From Candidatus Aenigmatarchaeota archaeon (GTDB lineage: Archaea > Aenigmatarchaeota > Aenigmatarchaeia > QMZP01 > QMZT01): a stretch of DNA of 64,000 nucleotides. The notes under the pieces were generated by a model. It was given only the letters and a program-made list of their open reading frames with translations. It ran no database searches and had not been told where the DNA came from. A program made the translations under genes and the position numbers. Location: positions 13,271-77,270 of the forward strand of contig JAZDFI010000008.1 in NCBI GenBank assembly GCA_043808015.1, given 5' to 3'. Below, piece by piece: positions 48,705-51,700 of the stretch (positions within the stretch are counted from its first letter, which is position 1; each line of letters starts with the position of its first letter).

Positions 48705-51700
48705 CTACGTTGTGTGGTGGATGGTTTGGTTCGAGGGCCGAAGAAGGACGTGGCAAGCTGCGATATGCCGGGGGTAGACGCAAGCAGTCTTTGAACTCCG
48801 GATCTCTCAATGAGACTTCTTAACTTCGGTTGTTGGCCTTCGGGTCATCGGTGACGCCCTGAATTGAAACATCTTAGTAGGGGCAGGAAAAGAGAACAAT
48901 AGTTATTCCCTTAGTAGAGGCGATTGAAAAGGGAAGAGGACAAACCGAATCTTCTGGTGTAAGCCAGGAGAGATGTGGGGTTCGGACCTGTGCTCATCCT
49001 AACTTCTAAGTCCGAAGTGATCTGGAAAGATCCACGGCAAAGGGTGATAGTCCCGTAGGAGGACAGAAGAAGGTTGATAGCGGGTATCCAGAGTACCAAT
49101 GGTCGAAGATCCATTGGGAATACGGGAGCCAGTAACTCCTAATCCTAAATACACCTCGAGTCCGATAGCGCACAAGTACGGTGACGGAAAAATGAAAAGT
49201 ATCCTTAATCGGAGATTAAAAGAGCCTGAAACCATGCAACTATAGGTAGACATTGCTTCTGCTTTGCAGGAGTTTTGTCGCCCGTGCGGAAACACGCGTC
49301 AAGGAGTTTATTTTTGTGGCGAGGGTAATTCAAGTACCCATAGCGAAAGCGAGAACTGCGCAGCGGCTTCGTGCCGTCAGGCAGTCAGGTTTGAAAGAGC
49401 CTACAGTCACAAGGATAAGACCTGAAGCTAGTCGATCTAGCCCTTGGTAGGGTGAAGTCTGGCGAAAGCCAGATGGAGGCCCGGTAGAGATGCTGAGATT
49501 CAAATCGCTCACGTAACCTGGGGCTAGGAGTGAAATGCTAATCGAGATTAGCGATAGCTGGTTCCTCTCGAAATATGCCTCAGCATAGCCTGGTCGGAGA
49601 TGGATGGCGGGGTATAGATACTGATTGGGCAACCAAGGACCGAAAGGTCCAGTTGTCCTGTCAAACTCGGAATCTACCATCATCGCAGAAGACCGGAGTG
49701 GGAGCGCCGGGGTAAGCTCGGTGTTCGAAAGGGCGAGAACCCAGCCTAAAATTAAGGTCCCTAAATTCAAGCTAAGTGATAAAAAGCGTCTTCAACCTTA
49801 TACAATAGGGAAGTTGGCTCAGAAGCAGCCACCTTTTAAAGAGTGCGTAATAGCTCACCTATCTAGGTTGTGGGCCTTGAAAATGGACGGGACTAAGCTT
49901 GGTACCGATATTTTAGATTCCTAAAAGGAATATGGTAGAGAGGTGTCCTGCTAGGGCAGAAGTTCTCTCGTAAGAGGGAATGGACCTTGCAGGAATAAGA
50001 ATCTTGATGATAGTAGCAGCAATAGTGAAGTGAGACACTTCACCACCTAAAGGGCAAGGGTTCCTCAGCAACGTTCGTCGACTGAGGGTTAGTCGGTCCT
50101 AAGGCAAGCCCCAATTGGAACTTGCCGAAAGGGAAGCAGGTTAATATTCCTGCACCATGAGAATACGAGTGGCGACACAAGTTCATTTCCTGACGCTTCT
50201 GGATAAATCGATCATTTCGGTGATTAACCGGTTAAACCTGTGGAGTACCGTAATGGTGAGAAACAGGCCAAGCCGGCAATAGCTGACGTATGTCAGTTCG
50301 GTTGACTTCAGGAGCCCGTGAAAAGGGAAATGGAATGGATTTTTCATGTCCGTACCAAGAACCGTTACTGGTGCCCCTCGCTGAGAAGGCGAAGGTGTAA
50401 TAGGAAAATTCAGGTCAAGGAATTCGGCAAAATCGCCCTGTACCTTTGGTATAAGGGGTGCCTAATCTTCTGGCTCAGCCAGAACGATTAGGTCTCAGTA
50501 ACTAGTGGGTTGCGACTGTTTAACAAAAACGTAGGGGGCTGCTAGGTGGAAACGCTTTGTATAGCTCTTGAGGCCTGCCCAGTGCCGGTGTGTTAAACTG
50601 GCTAAAACCAGCCAAGCCCCGGTAAACGGCGGCGGTAACTCTGACCGTCTTAAGGTAGCGTAATCCCTTGTCGATTAATTGTCGACCTGCATGAATGGCT
50701 TAACGACATCCCAACTGTCTTGATCTGAAGCCTAGCGAACTTAGTTGTCCAGCGAATATCCTGGAGTCCTTCAGCGGGACGAGAAGACCCCATAGAGCTT
50801 TACTGCAGTCTGTTGTTGTAGTATGCTGATGGTCGCATAGCGTAAGTGGGAGCATCGCACTCAAGTCTTCGGGTTTGAGGAAGGCGTCAATGTAACACCA
50901 CTCCACCGTCAACATATTGCTTACCTTTAGGGGGACAGCAATTGATGGGCAGTTTGGCTGGGGCGGTACGCCTCTGATAAAGGATCAGAGGCGCCCTATG
51001 GTCGGCTCATTCCGGTCAGAAATCGGAAGCAGAGTGTAAGGGCAAAAGCCGGCCTGATAGGATTCTGCAAGGCAAAGAATCCTAACGCGAAAGCGTGGCC
51101 TAGCGATCCGCTGTGTCTCTATTAGCTGAGAGCCAGCTCTGTCAGAAAAGTTACCTTGGGGGTAATGGAGTCGTGGCGCGTGAGAGTCCATAACTCATTT
51201 CTCGTTCTCGATAAGTCTGAACAAAAAACGATACATACCTTGTGTATGTTAAAGCTTTTTGTCAGGACAAGCAGAAAGCAGAATATATAATCATCTGTTG
51301 GCTGTTGAGTCACACGTATCTATGCCCATTCATTGGGCTGCAAAGGTGCGTGTGATGATGAAAAATCGAGAAGTGAGAGGTCAAATCGACCGCGCTCGTT
51401 GCTTCTCCGCCGTCGGCTCGGCTCTTCCTGGACGTGCAGCAGCGTCCAAGGGTGGAGGTGTTCACTCATTAAAGAGTCACGCTAGCTGGGTTAAATACGG
51501 TGCGAGCCAGTATGGTCTATATCTGCTGAAGGTGTTGGTTACCTGAGGGTAGAATGCAATTAGTACGAAAGGAACACTGCGTTGTGGCCTCTGGTGTATC
51601 GGTTGTGTCTGCATTGCCGAGTAGCTACGCCGCTGAGGATAAAGGCTGAAAGCATCTAAGCCTGAAGCCTCTCCCGAAAATAGGTAACCGTTCATCAAAC

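Follow-up and report, generated by a model that had tools for sequence, protein, structure and literature searches.

[quoted passage not shown] The window analysed here, a 64,000-nucleotide stretch of archaeal DNA, departs from both, as its 23S rRNA gene carries substitutions in the PTC and its archaeal release factor, aRF1, carries GGW, which an earlier note made from the letters alone had pointed out. The locus raises the question of whether such a ribosome is functional, how it releases finished proteins, and whether the two departures are linked. The host is an uncultured, small-genome DPANN archaeon of a lineage mostly labelled Aenigmatarchaeota, and its genome (G000) comprises 934 kb on 39 contigs and is 90.7% complete. 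Our evidence base is sequence data, from metagenome-assembled genomes (MAGs) and public contigs, and the comparison covers four orders of one GTDB phylum: the host's own order, a sister order centred on G150, and two orders that retain GGQ.

46401-47839, forward strand: SSU rRNA (Rfam)
48693..51828, forward strand: archaeal 23S (LSU) rRNA gene (Rfam RF02540 1-2987, 2477.5 bits)
50775..50791, forward strand: E. coli 2050-2066 region, with A2057, G2058, A2059, G2061 and A2062 (MAFFT versus rrlB)
51158..51168, forward strand: central loop of the PTC (E. coli 2444-2454), with the sequence GGGGGUAAUGG (Rfam alignment, MAFFT versus rrlB, relatives)
51401..51416, forward strand: part of the PTC (E. 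coli 2494-2509), with the sequence GCUUCUCCGCCGUCGG (Rfam alignment, MAFFT versus rrlB)
51505..51521, forward strand: E. coli 2598-2614 region, with a canonical A2602 and with U2611 opposite A2057 (MAFFT versus rrlB)
54658-54766, forward strand: tRNA gene (Rfam)

The window gene matches the archaeal LSU covariance model RF02540 over its full length and is the single LSU copy in genome G000. Numbering is that of E. coli and was set by aligning the gene with MAFFT to rrlB of E. coli K-12 (L105). In the Rfam RF02540 model alignment, where posterior probabilities over the PTC are mostly of the highest grade (an asterisk), the archaeal consensus GGGGAUAACaG becomes GGGGGUAAUGG at 51158-51168, and the consensus ACcUCGAUGUCgG becomes UCUCCGCCGUCGG at 51401-51416. 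The eight substitutions that the earlier note had read by eye were borne out by both this alignment and the MAFFT alignment with rrlB: A2448G (51162), C2452U (51166) and A2453G (51167) in the central loop, and A2497U (51404), C2499U (51406), U2500C (51407), A2503C (51410) and U2504C (51411) in the 2494-2509 segment. The canonical invariants C2452, A2503 and U2504 are accordingly U, C and C, at 51166, 51410 and 51411. Model-based alignment does not restore canonical bases through indels, and an indel or register artefact is ruled out by the agreement of the Rfam covariance model with MAFFT and by gap-free flanks. The exon sequences quoted in the earlier note are correct; a minor slip concerned the E. 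coli 2494-2509 sequence, which had been given as GCUACC... and which in E. coli is GGCACCUCGAUGUCGG. Further changes in the window gene are U2586A, which is order-wide, and G2588A, which is found in the genus.

Around these substitutions the rest of the centre is retained, including G2447, A2450, A2451, G2505, U2506, U2584/U2585 and A2602, and the P-loop (GGCUGGGGCGG) and A-loop (UGUUC) are canonical. A canonical 23S PTC copy was found neither in the window nor in genome G000 (90.7% complete), which answers the suspicion of a second, canonical operon, and three metatranscriptome studies yielded Logan contigs that contain the window 23S region. The plasmid collection was also searched for a named archaeal 23S reference, with no match. 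The view that this is no decayed pseudogene thus stands on canonical functional loops, single copy number, expression and conservation, and we conclude that the window gene encodes a functional, expressed 23S rRNA that is the only LSU rRNA of its genome. Two proposed co-changes are likewise real. On the aligned sequences, the replacement of the A2453-C2499 wobble by G-U is a genuine isosteric compensation, and A2057 pairs with U2611 versus G2057-C2611 in E. coli, next to an archaeal-typical G2058.

Two features had been missed in the earlier note, namely a shifted glutamine in the aRF1 loop (GGWSQ) and an intron at 51192-51384, between the two altered PTC segments.

51192..51384, forward strand: 193-nt intron in helix 89 (H89; about E. 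coli 2476-2478), with no ORF (relatives, RNA contigs)

Family-level relatives do not have this insertion, which is genus-specific, and the spliced product, GUGAGAGUCCAU joined to AUCGACCGCG, is exactly the sequence of those relatives. In RNA contigs from three metatranscriptome studies 51191 is joined to 51385, whereas a DNA contig spans the insertion. Genome G000 encodes the splicing endonuclease EndA (PF01974 match); a simple minimum-free-energy (MFE) cofold at the splice sites gave a helix between the exons and a stem in the intron, with no clear bulge-helix-bulge (BHB) motif. Larger insertions are found at nearly the same H89 site in the relatives L007 and L019, and others directly after GGGGAUA in other orders (L107, L109, L190, L197 and L209), so that insertion sizes near the PTC range from about 190 to 700 nt across several DPANN relatives. 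Since multiple relatives carry insertions at nearly the same site, the region around E. coli 2450-2480 is, by sequence comparison, an intron hotspot.

The PTC variants are shared well beyond the host. The PTC of the same-genus genomes G003 and G004 is identical to that of the window, and GGGGAUAAUGG together with UUGCUUCUCCGCCGUCGGCUC is common to family- and order-level relatives. About 45 genomes of the own order, which is most of it, carry the variant 16-mer, versus 1 of about 280 elsewhere in the class, and the variant 21-mer occurs in about 50 public contigs, mostly Candidatus Aenigmatarchaeota MAGs and essentially all in 23S context. One exact match to the 21-mer, in a Paenibacillus genome contig (L061), has no 23S context and is probably due to chance or contamination. 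The two orders that keep GGQ have A2503C (CGCUGUCGG) and often GGGGAUAAUGG (C2452U/A2453G) as well, and in the GGQ-less sister order (G150) A2503C and C2452U/A2453G stand alongside an unchanged U2504. As they are present in the GGQ orders and in the GGQ-less sister order alike, A2503C and C2452U/A2453G are a phylum-wide background, probably ancestral to the phylum as sampled. There are exceptions, in that C2452/A2453 is canonical in some members of the order of G046 and A2503 in some members of the order of G150. The set U2500C/C2499U/A2497U, U2504C and U2586A are found in the own order only, and A2448G in the genus only. The 2-Mb, 4%-contaminated genome G047 (L210), from a GGQ order, has a fully canonical PTC that is probably the rRNA of a contaminating organism.

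The second departure from convention lies in the release factor.

24328..25554, forward strand: aRF1, class-I release factor (Pfam eRF1_1/2/3, translation)
24865..24879, forward strand: catalytic loop GGWSQ, residues 180-184, replacing GGQSx (translation)

The window aRF1 (P0001) has all three domains, eRF1_1, eRF1_2 and eRF1_3, and the stop-codon motifs NIKS (QNIKSK) and YxCxxxF (YRCDQKF). The classical GGQ catalytic motif is absent from its loop, which reads GGWSQ, with tryptophan encoded by TGG at 24871-24873 and the glutamine at +2 (Gln+2) by 24877-24879. It is the sole eRF1-family gene of genome G000, and no bacterial release factor was found in that genome at its 90.7% completeness. Literature searches yielded nothing specific on GGW or otherwise GGQ-less aRF1, or on natural PTC variants of DPANN archaea.

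Position 3 of the motif is W in 29 of the 30 genomes of the own order, a conservation that rules out GGW as a local oddity; 25 of these 29 have Gln+2 and the other four read GGWSAN or GGWSAS. The order's exception, G038 (L043, L009), reads GGQSAARF with a CAA codon for its glutamine, and so has Q3 but no Gln+2. In the sister order (G150) position 3 is more varied (W15/M10/Y2/F1/A1) and Gln+2 is found in 29/29. Both GGQ orders have Q3 throughout (20/20 each, 40/40 together), and their +2 residue is mostly S or A, with Gln+2 in 4/40. GGQ loss is thus confined to two of the four orders compared. Loss of Q3 and gain of Gln+2 are statistically linked, Gln+2 being found in 54/58 GGQ-less aRF1s versus 4/40 GGQ aRF1s, and the GGQ-less position-3 residue is bulky or hydrophobic (W/M/Y/F/A) and in 0/58 polar or charged. 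Since the catalytic loop has the same length in the Gln-less aRF1s and those of the GGQ orders, the +2 glutamine cannot simply take the position of the canonical one.

A survey of the aRF1 family with HMMER against 1.8 billion representatives found GGQ to be dominant, with W, F, E and M as minorities. The only non-Q representative with cluster taxonomy was the GGE-loop aRF1 homolog P0245, which is annotated to the bacterium [Eubacterium] cellulosolvens. Many long family members contain an intein, with a Cys directly after GGx and HN before Ser. Inteins placed exactly after GGx, running from Cys1 to HN and followed by Ser+1, were seen in P0122, P0125, P0130, P0131 and the relatives G008/G009/G029/G033. 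Such loop inteins occur in GGQ and GGQ-less lineages, the own order included; at the level of sequence, the aRF1 catalytic loop is an intein hotspot.

Whether the two departures are coupled can be judged from the same four orders. Strict co-variation of the PTC with GGQ loss is not supported, as the GGQ orders have most of the PTC changes. The coupling between PTC and GGW that the earlier note had proposed is only partly supported: most of the changes are shared with the GGQ orders, and only U2504C and A2448G are confined to the order and the genus, respectively. The revertant G038, moreover, combines GGQSA with the order's variant PTC, U2504C included. We found no rRNA feature specific to the release-factor change, because the GGQ orders share the changes and the G150 order keeps U2504.

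In RF2, a pocket lined by A2451, C2452 and U2506 takes up the side chain of Gln252, which is methylated at N5, and the carbonyl of this residue and a backbone NH jointly coordinate the water that acts in hydrolysis (PMC11890864, PMC5799190). In the lineages studied here, our data suggest that protein release is modified. The sole aRF1 has lost the GGQ glutamine, either independently in two orders or once in their shared ancestor with later reversions, and we propose that peptide release still occurs on these ribosomes via the modified loop. The bulky hydrophobic side chain at position 3 would pack into the methyl-Gln pocket, itself remodelled at C2452 and, in the own order, at U2504, and the hydrolytic water would be positioned by a loop backbone amide, by the relocated Gln+2, or by both. 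The pocket changes that the phylum shares, at C2452 and A2503, probably acted as a permissive background and did not arise in response to loss of the glutamine; they may have made GGQ loss possible. As a whole, this explanation of a functional variant PTC served by a GGQ-less aRF1 that releases through a modified loop, in which we infer the placement of Trp and Gln+2 and the co-adaptation of the rRNA, has in our view an even chance of being right. Its narrower form, an alternative GGQ chemistry in which the hydrophobic residue in the pocket and Gln+2 or backbone co-evolved with the changes at C2452, A2503 and U2504, is offered tentatively, as a possibility that we would not bet on.

Alternatively, selection may have been relaxed in these host-dependent episymbionts, whose growth may be slow and whose translation may be of low fidelity, so that PTC and catalytic loop drifted, were tolerated and are uncoupled. 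E. coli tolerates single substitutions at A2503 and U2504 (PMC7049736), and the rRNA changes are therefore plausible as tolerated but lineage-fixed, which suits relaxed selection too. The PTC changes are, moreover, patchy over the phylum, given the exceptions in the orders of G046 and G150, and GGQ was lost in just two of four orders. The release factor does not behave in this manner, however. Its position-3 replacements are always bulky or hydrophobic, with none of 58 polar or charged, Gln+2 is near-constant in GGQ-less and near-absent in GGQ sequences, and the sole revertant, G038, regained GGQSA as a unit. Since position 3 is so consistently hydrophobic and Gln+2 so unevenly distributed (54/58 versus 4/40), pure drift is argued against, and we regard relaxed selection as possible but doubtful.

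Another origin for the PTC changes, unrelated to the release factor, would be selection for resistance to natural PTC-targeting antibiotics met in the habitat or in the host. Resistance to PTC-binding antibiotics classically maps to C2452, A2453, A2503 and U2504, among which the target of Cfr methylation also lies, and the changes are phylum-wide whatever the type of aRF1. U2504C is restricted to one order, however, and resistance mutations are usually costly, yet these are fixed across the phylum; we consider this origin unlikely. It is less probable still that the GGW aRF1 is weak or inactive and that release falls to an unrecognised factor, such as a divergent baeRF or Pelota-like protein. 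Relatives do have weak aRF1-like (Pelota-like) paralogs, and class-I release factors are held to have the glutamine almost without exception (PMC7708063; PMC6514570), but no second eRF1-family gene or bacterial release factor was found in the 90.7%-complete genome, and the aRF1 retains its stop-codon motifs and shows strong purifying selection throughout the order. Misassembly, contamination or a silent second rRNA operon, which reliance on MAG data might invite, has a negligible chance of explaining the variants, as the genome has a single LSU copy and the same changes recur in dozens of assemblies made independently in different studies and in RNA-derived contigs from three.

With a divergent PTC in their only LSU rRNA and, in two orders, a sole release factor that lacks the GGQ glutamine, these archaea are natural test cases for the chemistry that is essential to peptide release. 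The relative roles of the glutamine side chain and the backbone in release have long been debated, and the natural variants make the matter testable. Since the changed positions are antibiotic-resistance sites, the response of these ribosomes to PTC drugs is likely to differ. The sequences extend the observation from one locus to a phylum with a divergent PTC, two orders without the GGQ glutamine, and a spliced PTC intron in one genus.

When compared with known systems, the window 23S rRNA resembles canonical archaeal and bacterial 23S (the RF02540 consensus and rrlB) in its full-length LSU fold, P-loop, A-loop, A2450/A2451 and A2602, and differs from it by eight PTC substitutions, U2586A/G2588A and a spliced H89 intron. 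Anisomycin resistance in Halobacterium involves C2452U and U2504, and A2503 is modified by Cfr. The same nucleotides are changed in PTC antibiotic-resistance mutants as in the window gene, where, unlike single laboratory mutations, the changes are combined and are fixed across the phylum or order. Archaeal BHB-type rRNA introns, such as the crenarchaeal 23S introns, are excised by EndA. The window intron is like these in its small size, its location in a conserved PTC-proximal region, its precise removal from RNA and the presence of an EndA gene; unlike introns of the crenarchaeal type it has no homing-endonuclease ORF, and its MFE fold recovers no canonical BHB. The window aRF1 shares with classical aRF1/eRF1 its three domains, NIKS, YxCxxxF and the length of its catalytic loop, and is set apart by W in place of a supposedly invariant Q at position 3 and by Gln at +2. 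In this last respect it is like aVLRF-1/acVLRF-1, for which Burroughs and Aravind described the motif GGxSQ, its catalytic Gln lying two residues past GGx (PMC6514570), and to which GGWSQ conforms. The VLRF-1 families have no C-terminal Pelota domain, their catalytic loop is longer, and an N-terminal coiled coil is found in aVLRF-1 (PMC6514570), whereas the window protein has eRF1_3 and a loop of aRF1 length, the domain and loop architecture of an aRF1 and not of a VLRF-1.
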